Shown here: positions 1 through 37,892 of the stretch, piece after piece
How the letters are laid out: each line of letters begins with the position of its first letter
How positions within the stretch are numbered: the stretch's first letter is position 1
Origin: a virus
Length of the DNA stretch: 42,045 bases
IMG/VR virus record: IMGVR_UViG_3300045988_083426
Reading direction: 5' to 3' (one strand)
Position numbers and translations under genes: made by a program
The notes under the pieces: model-generated
The model's input: the letters and a program-made list of their open reading frames with translations, nothing else
What the model was told of the DNA's origin: nothing
The model's database searches: none

Positions 1-99
1 GCTTTTTTGAAAAGCGCCTAAAAAACTGCACGGAAAGCGGCCTGATTTCAGGCCACTTTTGAGACAACGGCCCCAAAATATGGTAGGATGGCCGTAGGA
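1..99. repeat. Terminal direct repeat, copy 1 (circular-assembly overlap)
   Basis: gcttttttgaaaagcgcc...ggatggccgtagga is identical to 41947-42045. Confidence 0.95.
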
Positions 100-287
100 T
101 GAACGAGCGAATCAAAGAGAGAAGGGAATACTTCGGGCTGAGCCAGCGGGAGCTGGCCCGGCGGGTCGGCGTGGGAAAGACCACGATCTCAGAAATAGAG
201 GGAGGGGATCGGCTGCCGAACGTTGAGACGGCGATACGCATAGCGAGAGCACTGGAAACCACCGTGGAGCAGCTATGGGGAGGGTAA
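99..287 (+). CDS. XRE-family helix-turn-helix regulator (62 aa)
   Basis: LSQRELARRVGVGKTTISEIEGG is a classic HTH_3 signature. Divergent from the integrase across the circular junction. Confidence 0.85.
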   Translation: MNERIKERREYFGLSQRELARRVGVGKTTISEIEGGDRLPNVETAIRIARALETTVEQLWGG

Positions 288-288
288 C

Positions 289-393
289 ATGGACAACAGG
301 AAGGTATTGATAGACGCAATCCTGCGCCTGCTGGCGCTGGCCGACGCGGAGCAGCTGCGGCTGGTGTATATCGCGGCGCTGAACTTGATTTAA
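289..393 (+). CDS. 34-aa microprotein, family copy 1 (MDNRKVLIDAILRLLALADAEQLRLVYIAALNLI)
   Basis: ATG lies 1 nt after the xre stop. Same length as, and about 20/34 identical to, the ORFs at 37681 and 38191. Confidence 0.55.
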   Translation: MDNRKVLIDAILRLLALADAEQLRLVYIAALNLI

Positions 394-401
394 GTATAGC
401 T

Positions 402-457
402 ATACGTAAAAATACGTAAAAAAAGATGTTGACATACGTGTGAATACGTGCTATACT
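402..457 (+). promoter_or_regulatory. hicAB promoter with four ATACGT boxes
   Basis: -35 TTGACA (429-434), 17-nt spacer, TG-extended -10 TATACT (452-457). ATACGTAAAA x2 at 402-421; ATACGTG x2 at 434-440 and 444-450, inside the spacer. Confidence 0.6.
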
Positions 458-483
458 ATATAACAGAAAGCGGGGGTGAGGCA

Positions 484-669
484 GTGAGATACAGCGAGCT
501 GGAAAAGGAACTGAAGAAAGCGGGATGCAAGGTATACCGCGAGGGCGCGAACCATAGCATATGGTACAGCCCCGTCACCGGGCAGAAATTTCCGGTGAGC
601 CGCCACAAAACGGAGGAGATCCCGGCGGGAACACTGAAATCCATACGCAGAGCGGCGGGGCTGGAATAA
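484..669 (+). CDS. hicA: HicA-family mRNA interferase toxin
   Basis: Sequence runs ...KKAGCKVYREGANHSIWYSPVTGQKFPVSRHKTEEIPAGTLKSIRRAAGL, with the HicA pattern G..H....vp.H..ei..g.l..I...aGl. GTG at 484 follows a GGGGGTGAGG SD; the track ORF begins at 448. Confidence 0.8.
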   Translation: MRYSELEKELKKAGCKVYREGANHSIWYSPVTGQKFPVSRHKTEEIPAGTLKSIRRAAGLE

Positions 670-711
670 GCCCCACCGCTCCGGCGGAAACAATAGGAAC
701 GTGAATGATAA

Positions 712-735
712 CAAGAGCAAGAGCAAGAGCAAGAG
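712..735. repeat. Hexanucleotide microsatellite (CAAGAG)x4
   Basis: caagagcaagagcaagagcaagag in the hicA-hicB spacer. It creates the spurious RARARA N-terminal extension of the track ORF at 705. Confidence 0.9.
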
Positions 736-755
736 CAACAACTGGAGGAATGAAT

Positions 756-1151
756 ATGGCGAAATATGTGTATCCGGCAGTTTTTACACAGGAAGCAGAG
801 GGAGGGTATTCGATCAACTTCCCGGATCTGCCGAATTGCTTCACGTCGGCGCCGACGCTGGAGGAGGGGCTTGAGATGGCGGCAGACGTGCTCTGCCTGA
901 CGCTGTACGGCATGGAGGAGGATGGGATCACGCCGCCCGCGCCGTCTGACGTGCGCAGCATTCCCGCCGCGAAGAACGAGCTGACCACGCTGGTGCGCTG
1001 CGACACGATCGAATACCGCAGGTTCTACGACAACAAGGCCGTGAAGAAAACGCTGACGATTCCCTCGTGGCTGAACACGATGGCCGAGCGTCAGGGCGTG
1101 AACTTCTCACTGACGCTGCAGAACGCACTGAAGACAGAGCTGCATATCTAA
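756..1151 (+). CDS. hicB: HicB-family antitoxin
   Basis: MAKYVYPAVFTQEAEGGYSINFPDLPNCFTSAPTLEEGLEMA is a HicB/UPF0150 N-domain, with a C-terminal DNA-binding-like tail. GGAGGA SD lies 6 nt upstream of the ATG at 756. Confidence 0.8.
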   Translation: MAKYVYPAVFTQEAEGGYSINFPDLPNCFTSAPTLEEGLEMAADVLCLTLYGMEEDGITPPAPSDVRSIPAAKNELTTLVRCDTIEYRRFYDNKAVKKTLTIPSWLNTMAERQGVNFSLTLQNALKTELHI

Positions 1152-1188
1152 GAGCACCCCTGTCCCGATTGTGGGACAGGGGTGCTCT
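1151..1188. terminator. Bidirectional stem-loop between hicB and the leftward operon
   Basis: agagcacccctgtccc / gggacaggggtgctct, a 16-bp perfect stem with a 6-nt loop. Confidence 0.7.
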
Positions 1189-1206
1189 GTTAATCATCGC
1201 GTGGAC

Positions 1207-1422
1207 TTACTCTTCAATCTGGTCGGTCATTTGCTGGAGTTTGGCGACGAGCTCTTTCGCAAGATCAAGGTTCATCGTAAGTGAAGCGACGGGTTCCTCG
1301 TTGACCTTGGAAAAGGAATCGTCGTTTTCCTCAAAGTCCGGAAAGCGCTGCACAAACTGGAGCACTATTTCGCCGCCGTCGGCGCGGACAGAGACACGAA
1401 AACCGTTGGTATAGCTGTACAT
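1207..1422 (-). CDS. DUF3467-like small protein (71 aa), third gene of the toxin-antitoxin operon
   Basis: YTNGFRVSVRADGGEIVLQF...LTMNLDLAKELVAKLQQ resembles my recollection of the DUF3467 pattern. AGGAGG SD upstream. Confidence 0.5.
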   Translation of the reverse strand: MYSYTNGFRVSVRADGGEIVLQFVQRFPDFEENDDSFSKVNEEPVASLTMNLDLAKELVAKLQQMTDQIEE

Positions 1423-1437
1423 GTCAGGGGAACCTCC

Positions 1438-1821
1438 TTACATTTCCTTCAGGTCGACAGATTCAAAATCCGGCGTATGAGACGAAAGCGTATTCCACTT
1501 GCCGGGGAAGTCGGCAACTTTACCGGAAGTGGGACGCGCGGAGCGGGGCGTTCCGAACGGGGACCGGACGGGTATATCCAGCTTTGTCGCGATATGCACG
1601 AGGGACTGCAACGTGAAATTACAATCCCCGCGTTCCCATTTTGACACCATGCCCTGAGACACGCCCATAAACTCCGCGAACTGTTTCTGGCTCATGTTTC
1701 GCTTGACACGCTGGGCGACGATCTCGCCGCAGATCACGCCGCAAAGCCCGTTGAAGGCCACTTCCTCTGCGGAGAGAGAGACAGAAAGGGAGGTAAGCAG
1801 ATCATTCATACCTTGAGACAT
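1438..1821 (-). CDS. XRE-family HTH antitoxin (HigA-like)
   Basis: MSQKQFAEFMGVSQGMVSKWERGDCNFTLQSL is an HTH motif. ATG at 1821 follows an AGGAGG SD and lies 1 nt after the upstream toxin stop. Confidence 0.75.
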   Translation of the reverse strand: MSQGMNDLLTSLSVSLSAEEVAFNGLCGVICGEIVAQRVKRNMSQKQFAEFMGVSQGMVSKWERGDCNFTLQSLVHIATKLDIPVRSPFGTPRSARPTSGKVADFPGKWNTLSSHTPDFESVDLKEM

Positions 1822-1822
1822 A

Positions 1823-2215
1823 TTAAAGTTCCTCCTTCTTTTGGCGCAGACGTTCCGCAGCCTGCGGAATGTAGCCGGAATAGTCCGTCTTACGCTTGCC
1901 TGCGCGTTCATGAAACGCGAGCAGAAGAACCGGGGATTGATTCGCCAGAAATGCATACAGGATGCGCAGATTAAAGCCTTTTCCCGCCAAGTGCATACTG
2001 TAAAGCCCGCCGCCGATGTTCTCGAACTCCTTATGCCTGACAGCATGAATCCCCAGAGCCTTCAGCATGGTAAGACGCATCACCAAGAGCCGGAATACAT
2101 CCGCTTCTGTACCGCTGCCGGCGATCAAGGCCAACAATTCCGGCGTGAAATCATCATGTGTGTCTATCATCGCCAAATAATTCAGCAACTGACGCAGGGC
2201 ATCCTCTTTGTTCAT
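1823..2215 (-). CDS. Gp49-like (DUF891) RelE/HigB-superfamily toxin
   Basis: GGGLYSMHLAGKGFNLRILYAFLANQSPVLLLAFHERAGKRKTDY matches the Gp49-like core. AAGGAG SD precedes the ATG at 2215; the track ORF extends to 2278. Confidence 0.7.
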   Translation of the reverse strand: MNKEDALRQLLNYLAMIDTHDDFTPELLALIAGSGTEADVFRLLVMRLTMLKALGIHAVRHKEFENIGGGLYSMHLAGKGFNLRILYAFLANQSPVLLLAFHERAGKRKTDYSGYIPQAAERLRQKKEEL

Positions 2216-2268
2216 TCTATGCTCCTTATTCATGTAAGATATTAACCTATAAATAATATCTTTATTCC

Positions 2269-2308
2269 AAAATATCACTCATAGCAGATATTGTCAAGAA
2301 AAATTGAC
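2269..2308 (-). promoter_or_regulatory. Promoter and palindromic operator of the Gp49-like/XRE operon
   Basis: On the minus strand: -35 TTGACA (2292-2297), 17-nt spacer, -10 TATTTT (2269-2274). GTCAAG-N5-TTGAC palindrome overlaps the -35. Confidence 0.55.
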
Positions 2309-2440
2309 TTGAAACAGGTTATAAAATCGAAAGCCCTTAGAATGGGCACTCTCCTTATCGTGGGAGACCTGTTTTCCAAAGGCTTATATCCTTAGCATAG
2401 AGCTTTGCAAAACAGATGTCAAGAAATATTTGAAAAACGG

Positions 2441-2484
2441 CAAAGAACCCTGTCCGGGGTATGGGACAGGGTTCTTTGTTTTTG
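2441..2484. terminator. Bidirectional rho-independent terminator
   Basis: caaagaaccctgtcc / ggacagggttctttg stem, with T-runs on both strands. Confidence 0.8.
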
Positions 2485-2494
2485 GGGCGCGGGG

Positions 2495-2884
2495 TTATTC
2501 CGCGTCTTTTTTTTGCGCATCGCGCTGGGCGAGGAGCTTGTCGGCCATGTCGGAGAGGAGCTGCCACTGGGGCGGCTCGAGCCGGGCGAGGACGGAGACA
2601 AACTGCCGCTGAAACTCGCTGTCCGGGTCGCGGATGATGGACATGCAGAACTTCGTGATCTCCTCCTCGCGGGAAAGCTGCAGGAACATCTCCCCCTCGC
2701 CGCTGCGCAGCCAGCTCTCCGAGACACCAAACTCCCGGCAGATGGAGACAACTACGGAATCCAGCGGAACACGGGCGCCGCTCTCGTAGGCGGCGACGGT
2801 TCCTTGCTTTACGCCGATTCTCGCTCCGAAATCTGTCTGGTTGAGTTCGAGCGCTTTGCGCAAAAGTTTTATGCGTTCGTTCAT
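2495..2884 (-). CDS. CI-like XRE-family repressor (129 aa)
   Basis: LNQTDFGARIGVKQGTVAAYESGARVP is an HTH motif, followed by a non-peptidase C-terminal domain. AGGAGG SD; divergent from the rightward early genes. Confidence 0.8.
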   Translation of the reverse strand: MNERIKLLRKALELNQTDFGARIGVKQGTVAAYESGARVPLDSVVVSICREFGVSESWLRSGEGEMFLQLSREEEITKFCMSIIRDPDSEFQRQFVSVLARLEPPQWQLLSDMADKLLAQRDAQKKDAE

Positions 2885-2903
2885 ACCTACCTCCTTCGAG
2901 TGC

Positions 2904-2982
2904 AGTATAGCATAAGCAATATTGTATTGCAATATTAATTTATGGAAAAAGTATTGACAATGCCATATCGTTGTGGTATTTT
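2904..2982. promoter_or_regulatory. Divergent immunity promoters with palindromic operators
   Basis: Leftward: -35 TTGCAA (2927-2932), 17-nt spacer, TG-extended -10 TATACT (2904-2909). Rightward: -35 TTGACA (2954-2959), 17-nt spacer, TG-extended -10 TATTTT (2977-2982). CAATATTG and TATTGCAATA palindromes lie between them. Confidence 0.65.
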
Positions 2983-3007
2983 TACATTGCGACCTAGATA
3001 TATGCGT

Positions 3008-3024
3008 CACGCAAAGTATGCGTG
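3008..3024. promoter_or_regulatory. U palindrome copy 1 (CACGCAAAGTATGCGTG)
   Basis: Perfect 6-bp arms with a 5-nt spacer, 17 nt upstream of the ATG at 3041. Confidence 0.7.
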
Positions 3025-3040
3025 CAGGATAGGGGGTGAA

Positions 3041-3181
3041 ATGGTGGAGAAAGAAAGAATCAGAGAATTGCTCGAAAAGCAGCTGGAACTGCTTTCCGAG
3101 CAATCTCGGGGGGACCCGGCTATGCTGCCACAGCTCACGGACAGCATGGTGCAGGTTGTCAGTCTACTCAGGAGTCTTTGA
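3041..3181 (+). CDS. Small protein (46 aa), MVEKERIRELLEKQLELL...
   Basis: AGGGGG SD plus ATGGTGGA start context, shared with the other U cassettes. Confidence 0.6.
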   Translation: MVEKERIRELLEKQLELLSEQSRGDPAMLPQLTDSMVQVVSLLRSL

Positions 3182-3362
3182 GGGAGCCTGAGCGGATCTT
3201 ATTCAGATAGTCCTGCTTCAATTCGCGGCATGCATCAAAGTACATGGATTGAATCTCAGACGGGCTTTTCCTGGACAGATCCTGCGAGCGGAGATACAGG
3301 AGCGCAAGCGCCTCTGTGCGATTGGACGGGAATGTGCTCAATTTCACTTCGCTTGACATCAC
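3168..3362 (-). CDS. Small protein (63-64 aa)
   Basis: AGGAGG SD inside cassette A1. Its 3' end overlaps the 3041 gene by 14 nt. Confidence 0.65.
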   Translation of the reverse strand: MMSSEVKLSTFPSNRTEALALLYLRSQDLSRKSPSEIQSMYFDACRELKQDYLNKIRSGSLKDS

Positions 3363-3384
3363 AAATCACCTCCTTTCCGCTTCC

Positions 3385-3414
3385 ATTTTATCACGGGGGC
3401 GGGAAGAGATACAA
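3385..3414 (-). promoter_or_regulatory. Leftward promoter in cassette A1
   Basis: -35 TTGTAT (3409-3414), 18-nt spacer, TG-extended -10 TAAAAT (3385-3390). Confidence 0.55.
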
Positions 3415-3419
3415 GTGAG

Positions 3420-3471
3420 AAAAGCTGCCCTCGTGGGACACCGCGAAGGGGGGGCACGAGGGCAGCTTTTT
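3420..3471. terminator. Bidirectional hairpin in cassette A1
   Basis: aaaagctgccctcgtg / cacgagggcagctttt, a 16-bp stem with U-runs in both directions. Confidence 0.7.
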
Positions 3472-3503
3472 GCAGTGGTATGTACTGCAAGGGCGTGAAG
3501 CGT

Positions 3504-3520
3504 CACGCAAAGTATGCGTG
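3504..3520. promoter_or_regulatory. U palindrome copy 2
   Basis: CACGCAAAGTATGCGTG, preceded by GCGTGAAGCG, which can alternatively pair with TCACGC. Confidence 0.7.
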
Positions 3521-3533
3521 CGGAGGGGGTGAG

Positions 3534-3668
3534 ATGGATGAATGCGACAGAAACGCTGAAAAGGCTGCTGAACACCGATTGGAGCGGGCGAGAGCCGATG
3601 TTCTATTTTTGCAAATCAACCGTCTGCGAGCCAGTCGGAGCAAGATGCGGCAAGACGGTTGTAGGTGA
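3534..3668 (+). CDS. Small ORF downstream of U copy 2; reading frame ambiguous
   Basis: GGAGGGGG SD then ATGGATG. Frame 1 (3534) gives 44 aa. Frame 2 (ATG 3538, ends 3792) gives MNATETLKRLLNTDWSG... but largely shadows the minus gene 3616-3963. Confidence 0.3.
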   Translation: MDECDRNAEKAAEHRLERARADVLFLQINRLRASRSKMRQDGCR

Positions 3669-3963
3669 AAAAATACTTCCGAAGATCAGCGAGTTCTTCC
3701 GGCTGGATATCCGGAAAGAAGCCGTTCAGATGCCCAGAAAGAAACTGCTGCACGGCAAAGACGGCGGCCGCAATGACGCGCTGCTCGTCTAGGGTAAAGC
3801 GAAAATCACTTCGGACGAGCTTCTGTGAGACAGAGAAAGCGATGGATTCGTTGATGGTTTGCTGGCGGGCGGTATCCGCTTCAAATTCCACAACGAGAGG
3901 CAAGGCGGCCAAGACGGCCTCTGCGTCAGCAGGCGTCAGGCGGATGGGACGGCGCTTTTTCAT
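3616..3963 (-). CDS. Hypothetical protein (115 aa)
   Basis: AAAGGAG SD before the ATG at 3963. Non-repetitive, protein-like sequence. Confidence 0.7.
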   Translation of the reverse strand: MKKRRPIRLTPADAEAVLAALPLVVEFEADTARQQTINESIAFSVSQKLVRSDFRFTLDEQRVIAAAVFAVQQFLSGHLNGFFPDIQPEELADLRKYFFTYNRLAASCSDWLADG

Positions 3964-3995
3964 GTGGGGTATCTCCTTTCAAGATTGATTCTCAG

Positions 3996-4034
3996 TAGAG
4001 CGTAACACAAAGCAGAGTGAGATACAAGTGCGTG
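3996..4034. repeat. Intergenic cassette B, copy 1
   Basis: tagagcgtaacacaaagcagagtgagatacaagtgcgtg is identical to 5032-5070. Confidence 0.9.
3999..4027 (-). promoter_or_regulatory. Leftward promoter in cassette B1
   Basis: -35 TTGTAT (4022-4027), 17-nt spacer, TG-extended -10 TACGCT (3999-4004). Confidence 0.5.
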
Positions 4035-4050
4035 CAGGATAGGGGGTGAG

Positions 4051-4263
4051 ATGGTGGAACCACGCGAGTGCAGCTACGAGGAGTTCTGTGTCGGGATGTT
4101 GGAGTGTCTGCTCCACTATCACGAGCGGGTCACGATGCCTGTGGGACAGAACCTATGCAAAGAGATGGGAACGGAGAAGTGCCCCGAACGACTGGTTACA
4201 GACCAGTACGCCGAGGTACTTCGGGAAGCTATCCGGTGTGTCCGGATTGTTCACGATCTTTGA
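4051..4263 (+). CDS. Small protein (70 aa), LLHYHER...LREAIRCV family, paralog 1
   Basis: AGGGGG SD plus ATGGTGGA. Shares the LLHYHER and LREAIRCV blocks with the 4613 gene. Only the right half-site (TGCGTG, 4029-4034) of the U palindrome is present upstream. Confidence 0.7.
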   Translation: MVEPRECSYEEFCVGMLECLLHYHERVTMPVGQNLCKEMGTEKCPERLVTDQYAEVLREAIRCVRIVHDL

Positions 4264-4447
4264 GAAGACACGTGACAGCGGCACGCACACATTCTATGCA
4301 CTCCGACGCGGATCCGGGCGCATTATCGCAGGTATTTACGAGAAAACGCCCCGGCGCGCTGTCGTCCAACACGGTGACAGGCAGTTGGACTTCGCGGAGA
4401 TACAACGGACAGGAGACGGTTATGACAGACCGCCGCAAAAGAATCAC
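4229..4447 (-). CDS. Possible small protein (about 69-72 aa)
   Basis: Uses the SD carried by cassette A2 (GTG or TTG start). Hand-counted GC3 is about 58%. Fits the alternating pattern of the array. Confidence 0.4.
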   Translation of the reverse strand: MILLRRSVITVSCPLYLREVQLPVTVLDDSAPGRFLVNTCDNAPGSASECIECVRAAVTCLLKDREQSGHTG

Positions 4448-4462
4448 CTCCTTTCCGCTTCC

Positions 4463-4492
4463 ATTTTATCACGGGTACAGGAAGAGATACAA
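4463..4492 (-). promoter_or_regulatory. Leftward promoter in cassette A2
   Basis: -35 TTGTAT (4487-4492), 18-nt spacer, TG-extended -10 TAAAAT (4463-4468). Confidence 0.55.
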
Positions 4493-4497
4493 GTGAG

Positions 4498-4547
4498 AAA
4501 AGCTGCCCTCGTGGGACACCGCGAGGGGGACACGAGGGCAGCTTTTT
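4498..4547. terminator. Bidirectional hairpin in cassette A2
   Basis: Same 16-bp stem as 3420-3471, with a slightly shorter loop. Confidence 0.7.
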
Positions 4548-4579
4548 GCAGTGGTATGTACTGCAAGGGCGTGAAGCGT

Positions 4580-4596
4580 CACGCAAAGTATGCGTG
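4580..4596. promoter_or_regulatory. U palindrome copy 4
   Basis: CACGCAAAGTATGCGTG, 17 nt upstream of the ATG at 4613. Confidence 0.7.
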
Positions 4597-4612
4597 CAGG
4601 ATAGGGGGTGAG

Positions 4613-4816
4613 ATGGTGGACAATCGCACGGAAGTGCGGCTGAACGTGCTGCAGGGGCTGCTCCACTATCACGAGCGGATGATGGCCGGGGGCATACGGA
4701 TGCAGGATCCGAACGGGACGGAGACAGAAGTACCCATCGAAAAGTTCTACGATGGGTACGCCGATGCACTGCGGGAGGCCATCCGCTGCGTGAAACTGGT
4801 TAACGGTCGGACATGA
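4613..4816 (+). CDS. Small protein (67 aa), LLHYHER...LREAIRCV family, paralog 2
   Basis: MVDNRTEVRLNVLQGLLHYHERMM...ALREAIRCVKLV. Same SD and start context as 4051. Confidence 0.7.
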   Translation: MVDNRTEVRLNVLQGLLHYHERMMAGGIRMQDPNGTETEVPIEKFYDGYADALREAIRCVKLVNGRT

Positions 4817-5000
4817 CGGTCTTGTAGACGGACGTGAGACAGTTCCGGCAGACAGGATCCGGGCAGTAATTATCGCAGCCGTTGGGATGTAGGAAGCGAG
4901 TTTCGTTCACGGTGAGTTCCCGAACCCAGACTTTCCGCTTGATGAAGTCCTTCGGGCACTCCACGGTAACGGGAAATTCGCGAATATCTGCGGTTTTCAT
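4800..5000 (-). CDS. Small Cys-rich (putative zinc-binding) protein (66 aa)
   Basis: CPKD...GCDNYCPDPVCRNC cysteine cluster. AAAGGAG SD. 17-nt convergent overlap with 4613-4816. Confidence 0.65.
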   Translation of the reverse strand: MKTADIREFPVTVECPKDFIKRKVWVRELTVNETRFLHPNGCDNYCPDPVCRNCLTSVYKTVMSDR

Positions 5001-5031
5001 GGCAGGCTCCTTTCTGCGGATGGCCTCCGGT

Positions 5032-5070
5032 TAGAGCGTAACACAAAGCAGAGTGAGATACAAGTGCGTG
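5032..5070. repeat. Intergenic cassette B, copy 2
   Basis: Identical 39-mer to 3996-4034. Confidence 0.9.
5035..5063 (-). promoter_or_regulatory. Leftward promoter in cassette B2
   Basis: -35 TTGTAT (5058-5063), 17-nt spacer, TG-extended -10 TACGCT (5035-5040). Confidence 0.5.
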
Positions 5071-5076
5071 AAGCAT

Positions 5077-5093
5077 CACGTAAAGTATGCGTG
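5077..5093. promoter_or_regulatory. U palindrome copy 5 (one arm mismatch)
   Basis: CACGTAAAGTATGCGTG, preceded by GCGTGAAGCA. Confidence 0.6.
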
Positions 5094-5104
5094 CAGAAGG
5101 GGAG

Positions 5105-5320
5105 ATGAGGCAGATGAGAAGAAAGTCAATGCACTGCTCGGTAGAGCCGACGGATGACAGACCACTGTTTACGCATGAGCCGCAGATCAAAGCCGGGCAG
5201 CTCGATATGATGCCGGTAGGCGTGGTCGTCGCCACGCCGCTGGGGGATGACCCAAATGACATGCAGGGCTACCCGGGCAGCTGGGAAAAAAAGGCCGCAC
5301 TATGGGAGCGCGTCGAATGA
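5105..5320 (+). CDS. Small protein (71 aa)
   Basis: AAGGGGAG SD then ATG at 5105, downstream of U copy 5. Confidence 0.55.
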   Translation: MRQMRRKSMHCSVEPTDDRPLFTHEPQIKAGQLDMMPVGVVVATPLGDDPNDMQGYPGSWEKKAALWERVE

Positions 5321-5857
5321 GACCATGGGGCCGATCGTCACGGGGAGCGTAAGAAGCAGTTCCGGCAAGGGATCATCTGTGAAGTCGTGGCTCCAATAGT
5401 GATGCAGGCTACTTTCAATTTTGATGACGGCTTGAATATAGTCATTTTCCAAAGCCGGCGCAAGTGAACAGTCTATGGCCGATAGACGCAGGTGATTCGC
5501 GTCATAAGCATTGCACGGTTTGTCATAGTACACCTCGAAAATGCGGGAAGGAGGGCTGATACGAAAAATCCTTTCCCACAGTTTGAAGTGCTCAAGTTTT
5601 GGGACGGCATAAAAGCTCGAGAGCCGAGACGGCGCGTCCGGATAGTTCGATTTGCGGAACAATTCGGCCCGCACTTCCAGATTGTGAGAGGCAATTGCGG
5701 AAGTGGAAAGCACCTGTGGCGAGCCGCTGAACAGGTTTTCTTCGGAGATTCCCCATTGAGACAGTTCCGCAAGCCCGAAGCTGTTCGGCACTGAAAAGCC
5801 GCAGATGCGCTGTCCAGTGGACAATGTTCCATTGCGATCCAGATGGTAAGCGATCAA
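5300..5857 (-). CDS. Hypothetical protein (185 aa), orphan
   Basis: AGGAGG SD 7 nt before a TTG start at 5857. Contains EVRAELFRKSNYPDAPSRLSSFYAV, which may be DUF2441-like (unverified recollection). Confidence 0.6.
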   Translation of the reverse strand: MIAYHLDRNGTLSTGQRICGFSVPNSFGLAELSQWGISEENLFSGSPQVLSTSAIASHNLEVRAELFRKSNYPDAPSRLSSFYAVPKLEHFKLWERIFRISPPSRIFEVYYDKPCNAYDANHLRLSAIDCSLAPALENDYIQAVIKIESSLHHYWSHDFTDDPLPELLLTLPVTIGPMVSFDALP

Positions 5858-5881
5858 AAGATTCACCTCCTTCCTGCGGCC

Positions 5882-5910
5882 AGTATAGCACGGCGGGGAG
5901 GAGGGGACAA
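5882..5910 (-). promoter_or_regulatory. Promoter of the 185-aa gene
   Basis: -35 TTGTCC (5905-5910), 17-nt spacer, TG-extended -10 TATACT (5882-5887). Confidence 0.55.
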
Positions 5911-5923
5911 GGGGGTGGGGCGT

Positions 5924-5940
5924 CACGCAAAGTATGAGTA
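5924..5940. promoter_or_regulatory. U palindrome copy 6 (right arm degenerate)
   Basis: CACGCAAAGTATGAGTA, directly upstream of the AAGGAGGGGGG SD of the XRE gene. Confidence 0.5.
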
Positions 5941-5957
5941 AGGAGGGGGGTGAAGGT

Positions 5958-6143
5958 GTGGAACTTAGCTTAAAGGCAGCCAGAGTGAATGCGGGATTGA
6001 AGCAGTCAGAGGTCTGCGAACAACTCGGCATTGCGCGGGGGACACTTTCGCGGTGGGAGAGCGGCAAGGGAACCCCGCGGCTGAAACAGCTGATTATGCT
6101 CTGCGGGATGTACGGCGTAAAGGCAGAGGATATCCGAATATGA
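5958..6143 (+). CDS. Small XRE-family HTH protein (Cro- or Aca-like, 61 aa)
   Basis: LKQSEVCEQLGIARGTLSRWESGKGTP is an HTH motif. GTG at 5958 lies 6-7 nt after the SD; an alternative ATG at 5934 lacks an SD. Confidence 0.75.
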   Translation: MELSLKAARVNAGLKQSEVCEQLGIARGTLSRWESGKGTPRLKQLIMLCGMYGVKAEDIRI

Positions 6144-6146
6144 GAA

Positions 6147-6172
6147 GAGCAGGGTGCTGCAACACCCCGCTC
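6147..6172. terminator. Stem-loop between convergent genes
   Basis: gagcagggtg / caccccgctc, 9 of 10 bp paired, 6-nt loop. Confidence 0.5.
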
Positions 6173-6189
6173 AACTGGTTAGAGGTTAT

Positions 6190-6336
6190 TCACTTTTTCT
6201 TGGTGCTGGGACGGGTCTGAGACAAGGCACTGCCGGCGACACTCTTGGACGCCGCGCTGTAGCGGCCGTCGGTCAAAATCTTGGAGGCTTTTGACACGAC
6301 AGACTTGCTTGTCTGCTTGGGATTGCTCTTGGCCAT
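6190..6336 (-). CDS. Small basic Ser/Lys-rich protein (48 aa)
   Basis: MAKSNPKQTSKSVVSKASKILTDGRYSAASKSVAGSALSQ. AAAGGAG SD. Confidence 0.6.
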   Translation of the reverse strand: MAKSNPKQTSKSVVSKASKILTDGRYSAASKSVAGSALSQTRPSTKKK

Positions 6337-6367
6337 TCGTTCACGCTCCTTTCGTACGTTTGTACTA

Positions 6368-6396
6368 ATTATAGCACATAAGCGGCAAAAACACAA
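6368..6396 (-). promoter_or_regulatory. Strong leftward promoter
   Basis: -35 TTGTGT (6391-6396), 17-nt spacer, TG-extended consensus -10 TATAAT (6368-6373). Confidence 0.6.
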
Positions 6397-6554
6397 GGCG
6401 CTAAAAGATAAAACTGGAATCCGCTGACTGAGGAGGTGACACAGTGTGCTGAACGAGGAGAAGCAGGGCGAGCGCAGGAGCCTTTCGGAGCTGATGGGCA
6501 AGAGCGCGGTTCTCGGCCGAGGAGCTGGCCGCGCTGGTGAGGAGCTGAGAGGTC

Positions 6555-6881
6555 ATGGCGAGTAAGCAGTCAACCTGCTGGGTGATCGAGCACCCGGAGA
6601 TCGGGACGGCGTTTGTCGTGGCCGACAACTGGGAGCAGGCCACGGTGCGGGCGGCGGAGTTCTGGGGCGTGAGCTGGGCGCGGACGGTATCCGGCATGGA
6701 GCTGGTGCGGCGAAAGGACGCGCGGAAGAACATCTGCTGCCGCTGCGGCCAGATCTTCCACGGGAGCGGGGATCTGTGCGGCGCGTGCGAGAAGATCCTG
6801 CGGACGGAGGAGGACGAGACGAGCCGCCGACTGCGGGAGACCTGGTATCTGGGGAGAAAAGACGCCGCCTTCGGGCGGTGA
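6555..6881 (+). CDS. Hypothetical protein with C-terminal CxxC...CxxC zinc ribbon (108 aa)
   Basis: ICCRCGQIFHGSGDLCGACEKIL; high GC3. Confidence 0.65.
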   Translation: MASKQSTCWVIEHPEIGTAFVVADNWEQATVRAAEFWGVSWARTVSGMELVRRKDARKNICCRCGQIFHGSGDLCGACEKILRTEEDETSRRLRETWYLGRKDAAFGR

Positions 6882-7004
6882 GAAACAAACGAGGAGGAAC
6901 ACAGGATGATCGACGAGAGGAGCCTGACGCGGGCGATGAAGGAATCGTGGCGCTGGAGCGGCTGCTGGAGCAGACGCCGCTGGTATAAGAGGAGGACAGG
7001 CGAC

Positions 7005-7274
7005 ATGTACGGGCAGTGCTGGAAATGCGGCAAGTGGGGGCAGATGGAGCGGCACCACATCTTCGAGGGCGTGGCCAACCGGAAGAAATCGGAGGAATAC
7101 GGGCTGGTCGTGCTGCTGTGTGGGGAGGAGTGCCACCGGAACGGCCGGGAGGCCGCCCACCGCTGCGGCGAGACGGCGCTGCGGCTGCACCGGTGGGGGC
7201 AGCGGAAGTTCATGGCGGAGCAGAACGCGACGGAGGAGGACTTCCGGCGGGTGTTCGGGAAGAGCTATCTGTAA
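7005..7274 (+). CDS. HNH/NinG-like zinc-finger nuclease-fold protein (89 aa)
   Basis: CWKCGKWGQMERHHIFEGVANRKKSEEYGLVVLLCGEECH is a CxxC...HH...N...CxxCH pattern. AGGAGG SD before the ATG at 7005; the track ORF starts at 6906. Confidence 0.6.
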   Translation: MYGQCWKCGKWGQMERHHIFEGVANRKKSEEYGLVVLLCGEECHRNGREAAHRCGETALRLHRWGQRKFMAEQNATEEDFRRVFGKSYL

Positions 7275-7286
7275 GGAGGAAGAGCT

Positions 7287-7379
7287 ATGACGGTTACATG
7301 GGTACTGGCCTACATCGGGGCCGCGGCGGTGGCCGCAGGGTGCGTGCGGCTGGTCGAGCGGATGGAGGGGCGGCGATGA
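7287..7379 (+). CDS. Possible 30-aa membrane microprotein
   Basis: AAGGAGG SD then ATG at 7287. MTVTWVLAYIGAAAVAAGCVRLV is hydrophobic. Its stop overlaps the next start (ATGA). Confidence 0.4.
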   Translation: MTVTWVLAYIGAAAVAAGCVRLVERMEGRR

Positions 7380-7810
7380 AAGCGAAAAATCTGCTCGAGG
7401 GACTGGAGCGGTACGACAATTACGCGGTATGTCCCGGGTGCCAGAGCTGTGAGGGGAAGAAGGTGATCGCATGCCGCGACCTGATCTGGCAGGCGGCGGC
7501 GCGGATCCGCGGGCAGGAGCGGCAGATCGAGTGCCTGATGGATGCGAACGAGGGGCACCGGCGGATGCTGGTGGAGCTGCACCAGAGGCTTGCAAAGACG
7601 GAGCTGGGCTGGATCTCCACGGAGGAGGCGCAGCCCGTGCGCTCGGGGGACTACTGGGTGCGGACGGCGGGCGGGATCTATACGGTTTTGCCGTACTCGA
7701 CGCGGCACGGGGCATGGAACGCGATGGACGAGCAGGAAACGGCGCTGCGGGCCATCCCGGTGACGCACTGGATGGAGATTCTGCCGGCGGTGGAAGGGGA
7801 CAGGCCATGA
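7376..7810 (+). CDS. DUF551-like phage protein (144 aa)
   Basis: C-terminal ...SGDYWVRTAGGIYTVLPYS...VTHWMEILPAVEG resembles the DUF551 signature. Confidence 0.55.
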   Translation: MKAKNLLEGLERYDNYAVCPGCQSCEGKKVIACRDLIWQAAARIRGQERQIECLMDANEGHRRMLVELHQRLAKTELGWISTEEAQPVRSGDYWVRTAGGIYTVLPYSTRHGAWNAMDEQETALRAIPVTHWMEILPAVEGDRP

Positions 7811-8130
7811 TGCACAGGGCGGAGACGATGCGGTGCGGCGCGTGCAGCAATTTTATCCCGGCGCGGTCACGGCGGGCGCCGAAGCGGGGCTTTTGCCGGC
7901 TGGCGGGGCACAACACCTGCGTGAGCGAGAGCACGCGCGTCTGCCGGACGGACTTTGACCCGGTGCAGCCGATCGTCCCGACGAACCGGGACAGGCTGGA
8001 CGCGATGAGCGACGCACAGCTTGCGCAGTGGCTGGAGCGATTGACAGGAAACCCGGCGGAGAACCTGCTGCGATGGCTGCGGGCGCCGGTGGAAACGAAA
8101 GAGGAGGAAACACCATGGAAAACGATCTGA
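7807..8130 (+). CDS. Hypothetical Cys-containing protein (107 aa)
   Basis: ATGA start/stop overlap with the upstream gene; high GC3. Confidence 0.55.
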   Translation: MMHRAETMRCGACSNFIPARSRRAPKRGFCRLAGHNTCVSESTRVCRTDFDPVQPIVPTNRDRLDAMSDAQLAQWLERLTGNPAENLLRWLRAPVETKEEETPWKTI

Positions 8131-27587: not shown

Positions 27588-30500
27588 ATGAGCGATTTTC
27601 TGAAACGGAGGATTCAGGAGCGCGACGAACAGCGGCGGGGCACGCAGGAGACGAGCGCGCCCGCCAGCTCGTTTTTGCAGCAGCGGATCCAGCAGAGGGA
27701 CACGCAGCGCGCGGAGAGCGGCTACCGCGCGCCGACGGGGACGCACAAGACGATGCTCGGCATGTCGCTCGAGGAGTACAAGGCCAAGCTCGACGAAGCG
27801 CTGGCGGCATGGAAGAGCACAAGCGCGACGACGGAGAGCGGCCTTGCAAACCCGAAGGAGGCACAGGCGCGCAAAACGTATCAGACGATGCGCAAGCAGT
27901 ACAAGGCCCTGCAGCAGCGCGAGAGCGAGAAGCAGCAGGCGCAGGCGGCGCAGCAGGAGTATGACGAGCTGCGCGTCGCAGACCTGAACGCGCTGAAGGC
28001 AAAGATGGACGCGGCGAAGGAATCGGCGGACGGCTCGGCGAAGGAGCGCGTCGTCGCGGGGAGCATCGTCAAGCAGAAGGACTCCGGCGCGCAGGCCGCC
28101 TATGAGGAGGCGGCGCGCAAGTATAACCTCGCGCAGCAGATCCAGTACGACGAGCGCGGCGCACAGGCGCTGGGCAAGCTCTCGGAGGAGGAAGCGGCGG
28201 CGGTCGACACGCTGGCAAAGAGCACAAACAAGGGGCGGAAAACGGACATCGTGGGCGCGGGGATCATCGACGAAATGCGCCGCAAGGCAACGAAGGTGCT
28301 CACGGACGCGGGGTACAGCGCGGAGGAGATCGACGAGCTGGCGAACTGGCGGGCGCGCCAGCAGAACGCGCAGAAGTATGACGCGGCGGTGGAAAAACGC
28401 GAGGCGCTCGCGGACAAGGGCCTCTGGGGCGCAGCGGCGGCGACGGCGCTGTCCGTGCCGGAGACGCTGCTGAGCGGCATCGGCGTGATCGACGTCGCCG
28501 TCCAGAACTACGAAAACCGCGGGACAGACCGCCCGGCGGATTACAAGCGCACGGCGATGCTGCCATACGCCATGGCGACGGCGGGGCGGAGCACGATCTC
28601 GAACAAGCTCGAACAGAACACCGACGCAGAGATCTTCGGGCAGAACGTCGCGGCGGGTGCTTACAACATCGGGACGAGCGTGCTCGATTCGACGGCGGTG
28701 GCGGGGCTGGCCGCGCTGGGCGTGCCGCCGCTGGCGGCGACGTCGCTGCTCGGCGGCGCGGCGGCGACGAGCGCGATGGTCGACGCGAAGGATCGGGGCG
28801 TTTCAGACGAGCAGGCAGTGCTCACGGGCCTTGCGGCGGGCGTGGCGGAATCGCTGTTTGAAGAAGTGTCTCTTGAGAAACTGCTCAAGCTGAAGCCGGC
28901 GGTCGGGACACTGGGGCAGCGAGTGCGCACGACGATCAAGAACGTGGGATTGCAGGCGGCGACGGAGGGCTCGGAGGAGTTCTTCACGACGCTGGCGAAC
29001 ACCATGACGGACAACCTGATTAACGGGGGACTGAGCGAATTCCAGCAGAATCTCCGGGGCTACATGGAGCAGGGGATGAGCGAGGAGCAGGCCCGGCGGC
29101 GCGCGTATCTGGATCTCGCGGGACAGCTGGCACTCGACTTCGGCGGCGGCGCCATCGCGGGCGGATTGATGGCGGGCGGACAGACGGCCATCCAGACCGG
29201 ACAGCGCAACGCGGCGATTGCGCAGGAGTACGGCGACATTGCGCGCGGCGCGGCGCAGGAGCGGCTTGAGACAAACGAGGGCGACCGGCTGGCGCAGGAC
29301 GTACAGAACCGTGTAAGCTCCAACCGGCGGGTCGGCGGCGGGGCCATCGCGGAGCTGGTGAGCCGAAACGTACAGGCGCAGAACGCGCAGACGCAGACGG
29401 CCATCGCGGAAGCGGCGGCGCAGCGGCTGACGGAGCTGGGCGAGACGGAGAACGTGGAGACCGTCGCGCAGGCGGCGGCGCAGCTGACGGCGGACCCGAC
29501 GATGAGCGCGGGCCGACGCCGGGCGGCGGAGAACGTCCTGAAGGGCAGCCGGTACGGCGAGCGCGTGCTCGGCGAGCTGACGGAGGGGATGCAGGCCGAC
29601 AGCGCGGAGAGCGCCCCCGCCGCGGTGCAGGAGCAGAGCGCCGTGCCGAGCGCGGAGCAGGTGCGGCAGGCCGTGGAGAGCACCCAACGGAGCCGGGGCG
29701 CGCAGAACCTGACGGAATCGCGCGGGGGCGAGGAGCGCACGCAGAGCGGGCGGCGGTTCGCGTCCGAATGGGCGGGGAACCTGCCGCAGGTGCTGACGGA
29801 GGACGCCTACGTCCGGCGGCTGAAAGAATTGCGCGTGAATCCCCAGGCGACGGACAGCCGGACGGTGACGGGCACGGCCTACAACAAGGAGAGCGGCAAG
29901 CTCGACGTGATTGTCCGGGGTACGGACGGCAAGGTGGAGACGATCCCGGCGGCGAAGGCGGCCACTACGGCGCGGCAGGAGCGGCTCATGGAGCTGGCGG
30001 CGGACGTGGGCGAGGCGGGGCCGCAGATGTTCGCGGCGATCCGCGACGGGCAGGACGTGGAGACGTATGCACGGCAGTGGAAGAACGCCTACACCTACGG
30101 CGAGAGCAACATCCCGCGCGCCTACGCGATGCAGTCGGACGCGGTGAAGTATCTGACGGCGGAGCAGCGGGACATCGCGTATGAAGCGGGAAAGGCCGCC
30201 TACGACCAGAAACAGACCAAGGCGCGCACGAAGCGCGCGGCAAGGGGGAACGATACCCACAAGGCAAAGAAGGGCACTGTGAAGCTCACAGGGGCCGTTA
30301 TCGGCGGCAAGCGGTATGACGGGGTGAGCAAAGCGTCGCTGACGGAGCGGCAGCGGGCGAACCTCAAGGTGCTGGGGCAGGTCGCGCAGGCGACGGGCGT
30401 TGACATCGTGCTCTATCAGAGCCGGGCGAACGCGCGCGGCGAGTACGAGGGGCAGAACGGCGCCTACAAGGACGGCACGCTCTATCTCGACATCAACGCG

Positions 30501-36743: not shown

Positions 36744-36932
36744 AACTTCATCAAAGGCCACGGCCTTTGATGAGTAAGATTCGCTCCGAACCGCGCGTTT
36801 CCGTGCGTTGAACGCACGGAAACACACTCTCTCCGCGCAAGGTGTTTTTTGCGACGTACACGCCGCCGCAAAAAACGATTTGACTTTATTCGCGCCGCTG
36901 CGGCGGCGAGAACTCTGCGAGACATGAAATGA

Positions 36933-36961
36933 CAGCCCCGGAGGGATAACCTCCGGGGCTG
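36933..36961 (-). terminator. Terminator of the DUF2283-like gene
   Basis: cagccccggagg / cctccggggctg, a 12-bp stem directly 3' of the minus-strand stop at 36972. Confidence 0.65.
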
Positions 36962-36971
36962 TTGTGGGTAT

Positions 36972-37226
36972 TCAGGACTTTATCTTTTGAAGGAGCGTTC
37001 CGACAGAGAACGGAAGAGGGGGCAGGGTATTTGACCGGTAGCGCTTCATGAAGTCTAAAACGGTTACACCCGTCAGTTCGTCCGTGTCGATGTCCCTCAA
37101 GTAGATAATACCAGCTTCGCTGTCGTCACCATAGGAATTGTCTCTATCTCCAAGGGCGACATACAGAACGTCGTATTTGGCATCGTAATCAAATTGCAGG
37201 CTTGCCCTCTGCGACATATAATGCAT
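36972..37226 (-). CDS. DUF2283-like protein (84 aa)
   Basis: LQFDYDAKYDVLYVALGD...GIIYLRDIDTDELTGVTVLDF matches the DUF2283 pattern (YD.e.D.lyi.l...G..i). Confidence 0.65.
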   Translation of the reverse strand: MHYMSQRASLQFDYDAKYDVLYVALGDRDNSYGDDSEAGIIYLRDIDTDELTGVTVLDFMKRYRSNTLPPLPFSVGTLLQKIKS

Positions 37227-37281
37227 CTCCCTTCGAGCTGCCGCTGCGCGGATTTTTAGAGGTTTCCCTCACGGCAAATCT

Positions 37282-37310
37282 ATTCTACCACGAAGGAGAC
37301 CTCCAGACAA
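37282..37310 (-). promoter_or_regulatory. Promoter of the DUF2283-like gene (R element copy 1)
   Basis: -35 TTGTCT (37305-37310), 17-nt spacer, TG-extended -10 TAGAAT (37282-37287). Confidence 0.6.
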
Positions 37311-37329
37311 GAAATTTTTGGATTAGGGG

Positions 37330-37370
37330 TTGACAAACGTATCCACGTAATATATTATAAACGTGGATAC
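37330..37370 (+). promoter_or_regulatory. Promoter/operator of RHH gene 1
   Basis: -35 TTGACA (37330-37335), 17-nt spacer, -10 TATTAT (37353-37358). Perfect inverted repeat GTATCCACGT (37339-37348) / ACGTGGATAC (37361-37370) brackets the -10. Confidence 0.7.
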
Positions 37371-37388
37371 GGAAATGGAGGTGAACAT

Positions 37389-37559
37389 GTGTCTCCTAAA
37401 GGACGGCCGACGGACGACCCGAAAACCCTGAATACAAGAATCCGGTTATCCGAAGAGGATACAAAGCGACTTGAGTTCTGCGCAGAAGCGCTGGGAATCA
37501 CAAAGTCGGAAGTGATTCGGCGGGGAATCAAGGAAGTCTATGACGGACTAAAAAAATAA
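37389..37559 (+). CDS. Ribbon-helix-helix (Arc/Mnt/CopG-like) repressor 1 (56 aa)
   Basis: GTG start after GGAGGT. TLNTRIRLSEEDTKRLEFCAEALGITKSEVIRRGIKEVY has a beta-strand plus two-helix RHH layout. Confidence 0.7.
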   Translation: MSPKGRPTDDPKTLNTRIRLSEEDTKRLEFCAEALGITKSEVIRRGIKEVYDGLKK

Positions 37560-37790: not shown

Positions 37791-37834
37791 GTGGCGGTTG
37801 AACCGACACCCGCATAATTTTTTCAAATTAGGGG

Positions 37835-37873: not shown

Positions 37874-37892
37874 GCAAAAGTGAGGTGATTGC

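Follow-up and report, generated by a model that had tools for sequence, protein, structure and literature searches.

In the 42,045-nt stretch of viral DNA analyzed here (IMG/VR record IMGVR_UViG_3300045988_083426, referred to as "the window" at its full length), six rightward and seven leftward small open reading frames (ORFs), parted by repeated intergenic cassettes, occupy positions 2885-6445, between the immunity repressor (CI) and the early genes of the phage. Comparison with related phages reveals that this array is a real and unusually legible case of cassette-mediated shuffling of accessory genes in a temperate phage of Firmicutes. We consider it likely that the whole region is a hyperplastic accessory-gene ("moron") array composed of convergent-pair modules, in which the two genes of each pair are transcribed in opposite directions and the cassettes provide the homology for exchange. 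The turnover of accessory genes in temperate phages (defence, anti-defence and lysogenic conversion) is very fast, and its physical mechanism is seldom visible; here it can be read from gene pairs that are 99.4-100% identical in backbones diverged by ~3%, from at least seven different orders, and from mosaic cassette joints. The structural picture of the array given in a preliminary description of the window was largely right, with corrections that concern the U element in cassette B1, gene R2, the start codons, gene L2, and the unit of exchange.

Relatives were collected by exact-pattern scans with U, a short element that recurs in the cassettes, which yielded 12 contigs from IMG/VR, a GTDB metagenome-assembled genome (MAG) and eight metagenome assemblies; L003, L004 and L006 were discarded as chance matches to the search pattern, and a search via a conserved 108-aa neighbour protein revealed no locus beyond two known IMG/VR contigs. 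The flanks of the related contigs match the window at 97-99.6%. Nonetheless, all seven arrays that reach CI, i.e. those of the window and of six relatives, differ in the content or order of their modules. The window itself reads CIw, M1, M2, M3, M4, M5, M6, and the other phages of the same immunity type (w) read CIw, MH, M1, M4, M5 (L005) and CIw, Mn, MH, M1, M2, M3, M7, M8 (L013, where the contig ends short of the right flank). The N-terminal helix-turn-helix (HTH) half of CI is swapped in the remaining arrays, defining immunity types x (CIx, M1, Mm, M2, M3, M5 in L001; CIx, M1, M2, M3, MH, M7, M8, M9 in L008) and y (CIy, Mm, Mn, MH, M4, M7, M8, M9 in L009; CIy, M3, M7, M8 in L010). The preliminary description had taken a leftward gene, a divergent control region and a rightward gene as the repeated unit; what the relatives inherit and exchange is instead the convergent pair (a rightward gene R facing a leftward gene L), flanked by cassettes, and it is the neighbouring pair that varies. 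Thus M1, which is present as a unit in eight loci, is followed by M2, Mm, M4 or M5, and M3 is followed by M4, M5, M7 or MH.

Between loci, the cargo of five shared modules differs by 0-0.6% and the backbone flanks by 2.8-3.4%, which indicates that the modules are younger than the backbones that carry them. The copies of cassette A, on the other hand, differ by ~7% and are mosaic: the promoter spacer, the hairpin loop, a CGT/CAT variation, the variants of the U core and the stretch between this core and the Shine-Dalgarno sequence (SD) can be used as markers, and they are mixed even between the same two modules. The earlier view of the cassettes as recombined mosaics was borne out, as the markers in A and U combine freely across the relatives. 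Because they occur in many combinations, the breakpoints have to be spread over the region of homology and cannot share a single position, a pattern that marks homologous recombination and gene conversion and not site-specific crossover. The comparison of these loci shows the cassettes as the apparent joints at which convergent pairs have been gained, lost, duplicated (M3/M4) and exchanged among co-circulating phages.

All recognizable repeats of the array (two copies of cassette A, two of cassette B and five of the U core) lie inside 2885-6445 and nowhere else in the 42 kb. The duplicate of cassette A (~175 bp) expected from the earlier description was found at A1 and A2 (3364-3451 versus 4442-4529, 95%; 3449-3521 versus 4525-4597, 99%), and that of cassette B, with its 39-nt identical core, at 3996-4040 versus 5032-5076 (96%). 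Read on the plus strand, cassette A begins with the reverse complement of a leftward SD and promoter, continues with a hairpin, and is completed by U and a second SD; the cassettes end in the SD GGGGGTGAGATGG, followed by GTG or ATG of the next gene. The hairpin has a GC-rich stem of 17 bp (-43 kcal/mol on the plus strand and -37 on the minus strand), its z score is about -7.4 on both strands, and it is bordered by T-runs at both sides, so that we predict it to be a bidirectional intrinsic terminator. It is found in two of the six cassettes (A1 and A2) and is absent from B and C; predicted terminators occur only at A1, at A2, after CI and after L7. Cassette A would accordingly combine a leftward promoter, a strong bidirectional terminator and U with its SD, cassette B would correspond to A without the terminator, and cassette C would be a degenerate variety. 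Scanning with the pattern TTGnnn-N14/15-TGnTAnnnT identified 15 candidate extended -10 promoters in the window, versus 0.9 +/- 0.9 expected in shuffles. Seven of the minus-strand sites (2932, 3414, 4027, 4492, 5063, 5910 and 6396) lie upstream of CI, L2, L3, L4, L5, L6 and L7, at a distance of 10-25 nt from the SD and start of each gene, so the claim that every leftward gene possesses a TG-extended -10 promoter holds at the level of consensus for all seven. Only three matches are found on the plus strand of the whole window, and PR (2954) is the sole canonical rightward promoter serving the array; in the consensus scans no canonical plus-strand promoter was detected between the A terminators and the early genes.

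The 20-nt core of U, CGTCACGCAAAGTATGCGTG, is present exactly at 3005, 3501 and 4577, and with two mismatches at 5074 and 5921; all copies are on the plus strand, within 3005-5940, and none is expected in dinucleotide shuffles. U had been reported from all six control regions. The core is indeed found in five of them, but the third (3964-4050) retains only the 3' half of the element, its core having been lost by deletion between GCGTG direct repeats. Among the loci compared, the U core has been deleted twice independently, both times in terminator-less B cassettes, and not once in the 18 A-type (terminator-containing) cassettes that were tabulated in full. This distribution fits the possibility that U is required only downstream of a terminator. 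A U-like motif (AAGTTRTGCG) is confined to two leaders of L018, a LexA-type temperate phage, and has no copy in L019 or L020.

The left border of the array is formed by the gene of a CI-like repressor (2495..2884, minus strand, 129 aa), with its promoter TTGCAA-17-TGCTATACT at 2932-2904 (minus strand; consensus scan) and a predicted terminator beyond the gene at 2478-2441. PR (TTGACA-17-TGGTATTTT, 2954..2982, plus strand, also from the consensus scan) is followed at about +16 of its leader by U1, i.e. the U core and a G-rich SD (3005..3040, plus strand). Module M1 (3041..3362) consists of R1 (3041/3044-3181, plus strand, 46 aa) convergent with L2 (minus strand, 63 aa), with an overlap of 14 nt; L2, formerly drawn as 3168-3362, has been corrected to 3168-3359. 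Cassette A1 (3363..3537) comprises the SD of L2, the leftward promoter TTGTAT-18-TGATAAAAT (3414-3385, minus strand), the hairpin (~3419-3482, both strands) and U2 (core 3501-3520) with its SD. In module M2 (3538..3963), R2 is convergent with L3 (3616-3963, minus strand, 115 aa). The frame 3534-3668 previously assigned to R2 has to be replaced, most likely by 3538-3792 (plus strand), which has the better codon score (0.09 versus -0.58) and an N-terminus (MNATE...) homologous to that of protein P0029, and whose start is placed by analogy with MH, where homology to the N-terminus of CI fixes the start of the gene; in this frame R2, possibly decayed, overlaps L3 by 177 nt. Cassette B1 (3964..4050) contains the leftward promoter TTGTAT-17-TGTTACGCT (4027-3999, minus strand) and the 3' half of U with an SD, and lacks both the U core and the terminator. 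It precedes module M3 (4051..4441), a paralogue of M4, in which R3 (4051/4054-4263, plus strand, 70 aa) and L4 (4229-4438, minus strand, 69 aa) converge with an overlap of 35 nt. Cassette A2 (4442..4612; leftward promoter 4492-4463, hairpin ~4497-4558, U3 core 4577-4596 and SD) leads to module M4 (4613..5000), where R4 (4613/4616-4816, plus strand, 67 aa) and the Cys4-containing L5 (4800-5000, minus strand, 66 aa) overlap by 17 nt. Cassette B2 (5001..5113; leftward promoter 5063-5035, U4 core 5074-5093 with two mismatches, SD, no terminator) separates it from module M5 (5114..5857), formed by R5 (5105/5114-5320, plus strand) and L6 (5300-5857, minus strand, 185 aa) with an overlap of 21 nt. 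Finally, cassette C (5858..5957), with the promoter TTGTCC-17-TGCTATACT (5910-5882) directed leftward and a degenerate U5 (core 5921-5940) with its SD, precedes module M6 (5958..6396), in which the Cro-like HTH protein R6 (5958-6143, plus strand) and L7 (6190-6336, minus strand, 48 aa) are separated by a hairpin (~6147-6172; -22 kcal/mol, z score -3.4 on the minus strand). L7, suspected earlier to be a seventh leftward member, indeed carries an extended -10 promoter, TTGTGT-17-TGCTATAAT, at 6396-6368. HTH regulators in the first and last modules were recovered with Pfam (HTH_3, 1.3e-11 for CI and 2e-13 for R6), and, apart from R2, L2 and the start codons, the window confirms the coordinates of the ORFs and their 3' overlaps (14, 53, 35, 17 and 21 nt) as given in the preliminary description. 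The start codons are probably the GTG or ATG located 7-9 nt after the G-run (3044, 3538, 4054, 4616, 5114 and 5958), in which case the shared ATGG, formerly regarded as the first codons, belongs to the leader and is not coding.

Module M6 has been found only in the window: the segment 5906-6430 is absent from L001, L005 and L011, which have ~22 nt instead. A loss of 283 bp, which encode most of an 82-aa HTH-like protein (MPKVNLARDP...), also sets the window apart from all relatives; the residue is a 39-aa fusion ORF at 6446-6565. The gain of M6 together with this loss (5905-6565) may mean that one small HTH regulator has functionally replaced another.

Two modules without a copy in the window are worth describing. 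MH encodes the N-terminal 66-aa HTH domain of the x-type CI, with 100% identical DNA, inverted and placed behind U in the lytic direction; it is found in L005 (1473-1680) as well as in L002, L008, L009, L012, L013 and L014, which include phages of other immunity type. Its ORF extends across U as far as the following gene, which it enters in frame where this is R1 or R4, and it passes R7 out of frame (L008). In L008, MH and the resident CI gene form a 208-bp perfect inverted repeat, which could enable inversion of 1.8 kb of the array. In Mn (L009 4651-5100, L013 5947-6400 and L027 4260-4680), U is followed by a highly structured stretch that has no SD (fold z score -3.3, no match in Rfam) and is convergent with a 48-aa hydrophobic ORF having a TTGACC-17-TGGTATCCT promoter and a 5' hairpin. 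This layout resembles type I toxin-antitoxin (TA) systems; the copy in L027 is visibly diverged. In addition, the 1101-nt low-coverage contig L007, with a 20-nt terminal overlap, follows the path M2-B-M3-A and then M2 again, and represents either a cycle of the de Bruijn graph produced by the two copies of A or modules that are circular or tandemly duplicated, as in the systems of T4-type phages discussed below.

The small ORFs are conserved genes rather than duplication scars, in accord with the preliminary description. In comparison with the 87%-identical copy of M5 in L014, dN/dS is 0.13 for L6 and 0.15 for R5 (~0.14 for the two), whereas four of the five other frames give values of ~1 or more; the remaining one, on the opposite strand and with its third codon position in common, has values of 0.19 and 0.28. 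The nine products without HTH domain had been considered orphans, and for seven of them (R1, L2, R3, R4, L4, L5 and L6) this can no longer be maintained. L6 is a full-length member of phrog_5663 (4e-19) with a weak match to DUF2441; R1 is 55% identical to a protein of L018, and the homologues of L2 are 52-98% identical. A BLASTN search with 2400-6500 against 50,697 phage records gave no match, and tblastn with the concatenated small proteins gave a single one, for L2 in MT836321 (L017). In that phage the R1/L2-like genes again form a 3'-overlapping convergent pair (17 nt), and in three LexA-type temperate phages (L018-L020) such a pair, with an overlap of 44 nt, is located next to cro. R3 and R4 are paralogues (46% identity, E-value 1e-13) of a family that comprises 26 clusters at E<=1e-3, and L4 and L5 are divergent paralogues (29% identity, E-value 0.004) with the invariant motif CP...C-x-N...CxxC. 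Pairs of the R4/L5 type occur four times, among them as convergent overlapping genes in L024 (17 nt) and L027 (26 nt). Thus R1/L2 and R4/L5 represent two conserved two-gene families and are candidates for antagonistic pairs acting in the lysogen versus the lytic phase. Exceptions to the pairing are an L2-like gene standing alone in L021 and an R4-like gene of L023 that has no L5-like convergent partner; this member of the R4 family lies beside genes for the toxin ToxN and for a protein with a PBECR2/3 nuclease domain, in a neighbourhood of the conflict-system type (L023 155-1869). MT836321 and L024 have repeated leader/start cassettes of their own, GGAGGTGAACCACATGGACAAC in six copies (2900-6620) and CCTTACCACAGGAAGGAGATACC in two copies (640-930), respectively, both unrelated in sequence to U; judging from these loci, the feature that recurs across the phages is the architecture and not the sequence of U.

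According to the model that we propose, the unit of cargo would be a convergent two-gene module, in which the rightward gene would be placed behind a portable leader (U and the G-rich SD) and the small leftward gene would have its own extended -10 promoter of the sigma-A type, and exchange would take place by homologous recombination and gene conversion at the cassettes between co-circulating phages. From their anatomy, the leftward genes appear to be autonomous transcription units that could be expressed from the prophage, and the rightward genes would be expressed in the lytic direction. The convergent transcription at each junction proposed in the preliminary description follows from the anatomy as far as opposing transcripts are concerned, and five of the six pairs have no terminator hairpin between the genes; M6, which has one, is the exception. 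In these five pairs each transcript would run antisense through the partner gene, and the expression of R and L is therefore predicted to be mutually exclusive. The A terminators would divide the array into insulated blocks, bounding the leftward units L3(+L4) and L5(+L6) and stopping transcripts from PR, and the presence of two bidirectional terminators argues against a single block transcript. The transcript from the promoter of L2 would proceed leftward through R1, in antisense, and through PR into the CI gene, while a rightward gene located past an A terminator would need either antitermination or a non-canonical or factor-dependent promoter in U.

As to the function of the cargo, a bank of lysogen-expressed versus lytic genes with roles in defence and counter-defence is a reasonable hypothesis from the arrangement of the genes. 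The searches provide no support for defence or counter-defence cargo: in Pfam, PHROGs and PADLOC the small proteins gave only HTH domains, phrog_5663 and the weak DUF2441 match of L6, with no PADLOC match for the 10 proteins scanned, and, in spite of confident AlphaFold2 models of small folds for R4 and L2 (predicted local distance difference test, pLDDT, 88.5 and 83), Foldseek found no significant match for either in PDB or BFVD.

Several observations weigh against the interpretation of the region as a shuffled array of functional modules. The promoters and terminators are consensus predictions only. Cassette A (175-185 bp) exceeds typical assembly k-mers and many reads, so that some linkages through A in metagenome contigs could be chimeric, and several short contigs begin or stop inside it. 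M2 (R2, L3) has only close homologues, deletion variants, and may be decaying. U contains no acceptable -35/-10 of the sigma-A type (scan and manual inspection), its RNA fold is not significant (z scores from -0.1 to -1.2), and the arms of its palindrome mutate without compensation in about one quarter of the copies; in these respects U is unlike any known signal, including one that would account for rightward transcription past an A terminator. In another reading, the array would be nothing more than duplication scars or an assembly artefact without functional genes, which would agree with its high repeat content, the origin of the relatives in metagenome assemblies, and the poor codon scores of L4 and of the 3534-3668 version of R2. 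We find this hardly credible in view of the purifying selection, the protein families and the conservation of the pairs in unrelated backbones. Moreover, many of the junction types were seen again in other, independent assemblies, a read is longer than the junctions at B, MH and PR, and the modules that have no copy in the window (Mm, Mn, MH and M7-M9) cannot stem from misassembly of one genome. If the cargo is functional, each convergent pair might be of the toxin-antitoxin or effector-neutraliser kind, with the L protein as an effector in the lysogen that R, or the antisense transcript, would neutralise in the lytic phase. The pairs are co-inherited, two pair families are kept as 3'-overlapping convergent genes in distant phages, M3 and M4 are paralogous in both partners, which have diverged in parallel, Mn has a 48-aa hydrophobic ORF facing a structured RNA as in type I TA systems, and classical TA systems (HicAB and Gp49/HTH) are located just left of the array. 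Even so, we regard this possibility as doubtful: none of the proteins exhibits homology to a toxin, antitoxin or defence family in the searches given above, the models of R4 and L2 have no structural match, the exceptions in L021 and L023 lack the partner, and none of the L proteins of the window is a short hydrophobic peptide, a description that fits only Mn (L009/L013/L027).

The role of U bears directly on the expression of the rightward genes, and here we incline, with somewhat less than even confidence, to a promoter that is non-canonical or dependent on an activator or a sigma factor. Cassette A would then be a terminator-plus-promoter unit similar to the promoter-early stem-loop (PeSL) cassettes, each rightward gene would form its own transcription unit, as opposed to U being a mere leader on read-through from PR, and primary 5' ends would be placed just downstream of AAAGTATGCG. 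In the A cassettes, U directly follows a strong predicted terminator; in each of the seven CI-anchored arrays, one or more such terminators separate PR from the early genes, with no canonical plus-strand promoter beyond; the distribution of core deletions points in the same direction; and the structured stretch that follows U in L009 and L013 is non-coding and has no SD. However, the best hexamers (CTGCAA-17-CAAAGT) agree with the consensus at 6/12 positions, the place of the -35 varies among cassette types on manual reading, the Pfam scans performed revealed no sigma factor, and in w-type phages, where U is at ~+16 of PR, a second promoter would be redundant. In manual comparison, promoters for sigma-A, extracytoplasmic function (ECF) sigma factors, sigma-E or sigma-K and Rex/CRP-like boxes gave no convincing fit; an RNA hairpin was dropped because of the fold scores and uncompensated changes given above; and the idea that the 3051-aa protein of the window is a virion RNA polymerase reading hairpin promoters was abandoned, as Pfam gives only an ART-PolyVal domain. 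It is unlikely that U is a DNA operator for an HTH repressor, by which every rightward gene would be silenced in the lysogen. Such "stoperators" are known from cluster A mycobacteriophages (phage L5), where, as here, a short site in one orientation is found in the leaders of many lytic-direction genes, and the U core forms a 6-5-6 palindrome (CACGCA-AAGTA-TGCGTG), overlapped by a second one (GCGTGA-AGCG-TCACGC), and has a strictly one-way orientation. In L027, a more distant relative whose PR (2335-2363) reads TTGACA-GCACACGTAAAGTGTGC-TATTTT, the palindrome in the spacer occupies the expected place of CI operators and agrees with the U core at 13/14 positions (CACGTAAAGTGTGC versus CACGTAAAGTATGC), which may point to the origin of U. 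On the other hand, the symmetry axis of U lies 3 nt away from that of the L027 operator, the arms are broken without compensation in several copies, and U, unlike the stoperators, which are spread through the genome, is confined to the array (5 copies). It is also unchanged across the immunity types w, x and y, although these three have different CI N-termini and PR regions, and bears no resemblance to their PR-region repeats; a CI operator in particular was therefore rejected. A still less probable reading, to which we attach very little weight, is an integron-like system, with U as the site at which a site-specific recombinase would move modules as circles. As in integron arrays, promoter-proximal small cargo units are bounded by a repeat in one orientation and their content varies between near-identical carriers; U, with short inverted arms and a spacer of 5-7 nt, recurs in this way at each boundary between cassettes, its first copy comes straight after the array promoter, a tyrosine recombinase gene is 3 kb off across the circular junction, and L007 closes as M2-B-M3-A. 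Yet the crossovers are scattered through 40-185 bp of homology, the order of modules is largely collinear among relatives, as unequal crossing-over predicts, the only recombinase found is an ordinary phage integrase, with no attI and no attC-like structure, and the cycle of L007 is what a de Bruijn graph yields for a unit between two copies of A. It is tempting to combine these ideas and to consider the array a "cassette bank" of self-contained bistable switches, where L would be the effector of the lysogen, R together with the antisense transcript its lytic antagonist, and U, as a dedicated signal, would both drive or license rightward expression beyond the terminators and target the exchange of entire pairs among co-resident phages. 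This seems distinctly improbable to us, but if true it would make the array a functional analogue of the integron for the accessory genes of temperate phages. The interest of the system would rise if U were a dedicated signal for expression or recombination, or if the pairs were antagonistic switches.

The preliminary description knew of no described system with this layout. The layout as a whole does differ from the described ones, but a close kind exists, the PeSL cassettes of the hyperplastic regions of T4-type phages, which consist of a promoter, a stem-loop terminator, and an SD with the start codon and mediate modular shuffling and the formation of minicircles (Arbiol et al. 2010, PMC2839356; Comeau et al. 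2014, PMC4122927). These are the closest described system, and our accessory-gene array extends a known kind. In both, a short intergenic cassette is repeated in a region of small ORFan genes, each copy terminates with the SD and start codon of the gene behind it, and indels or replacements between ~96-99% identical phages are bounded by cassettes. A predicted stem-loop (-43 kcal/mol, z score -7.4) is present here in the A cassettes only, i.e. in two of the six, and L007 (1101 nt, 20-nt terminal overlap) is a possible circular by-product, although a graph cycle would look the same. The defining sigma-70 promoter for the downstream gene has no consensus equivalent here, where the rightward side (U) reaches at best 6/12. 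Here, moreover, the carrier is a temperate phage of a Gram-positive gut anaerobe, the array lies beside the immunity switch, the cassettes are bidirectional with the recognizable sigma-A promoter facing leftward, and the cargo is a convergent 3'-overlapping gene pair and not a single gene. Finally, the promoter activity, terminator activity and minicircles of PeSLs have been demonstrated experimentally (PMC2839356, PMC4122927), whereas the array is known from its sequence. If confirmed, our results would mean that shuffling of the PeSL type, described in virulent T4-type phages, also takes place in temperate phages infecting gut Firmicutes, and would add cargo that moves as convergent 3'-overlapping pairs and a composite bidirectional cassette with a leftward promoter, a bidirectional terminator and a rightward leader.

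Two other comparisons are instructive. The morons of lambdoid phages, reportedly described by Juhala and Hendrix in 2000, resemble the leftward genes, which are extra genes with their own predicted promoter, some with a predicted downstream terminator, placed so that the prophage could express them. Morons, however, are single insertions between essential genes, while here a tandem bank is formed, in which each such gene is opposite an early gene and is exchanged via shared cassettes. Temperate-phage switches with face-to-face convergent promoters and transcriptional interference include pR/pL of coliphage 186 and PRE of lambda, which is antisense to cro. In the array, too, transcripts in the lytic and lysogenic directions would oppose and overlap each other, and the promoter of L2 is placed like PRE; but accessory genes carry five to six copies of an arrangement that those phages have just once, at the switch, and the leftward promoters look constitutive (extended -10) and not activator-dependent.

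With respect to the carrier, the ends of the window are an exact 99-nt direct overlap (1-99 and 41947-42045), from which we conclude that it is a circular assembly of ~41.9 kb (about 41,946 bp). The integrase gene (40851-41897, minus strand) adjoins the HTH/TA/CI region across the circular junction, with the HicAB and Gp49/HTH pairs to the left of CI, and the window also encodes a terminase, a P22-like portal, a capsid protein, an amidase, a Bro-N protein and the 3051-aa ART-PolyVal protein. Circularity and the set of integrase, terminase, portal, capsid and amidase genes indicate a complete temperate phage; it is a phage of gut Clostridia, and one related contig has been binned with an uncultured Clostridiales MAG. 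Rfam searches of positions 1-8000 of the window and of L009 gave nothing credible. The 3051-aa ORF (27588-36743), in the region of virion genes, has a HELTH zincin-like motif in addition to the ART-PolyVal domain and represents a "polyvalent protein", a type thought to be injected to counter host defences. Between this giant tail-region gene and the Bro-N gene, a second array of repeated cassettes is found at 36900-38320, with a 201-nt direct repeat (37603-37803 versus 38113-38313, 95%), two plus-strand cassettes with a TTGACA promoter (~37315 and ~37820) and, on the minus strand, three promoters of the extended -10 type (38169, 37659 and 37310). Its cargo is also duplicated, comprising two genes for ribbon-helix-helix (RHH)-like proteins of 56/58 aa and two copies of a 47-aa "...EEQLRILYVAALYLV" ORF that resembles ORF 289-393.

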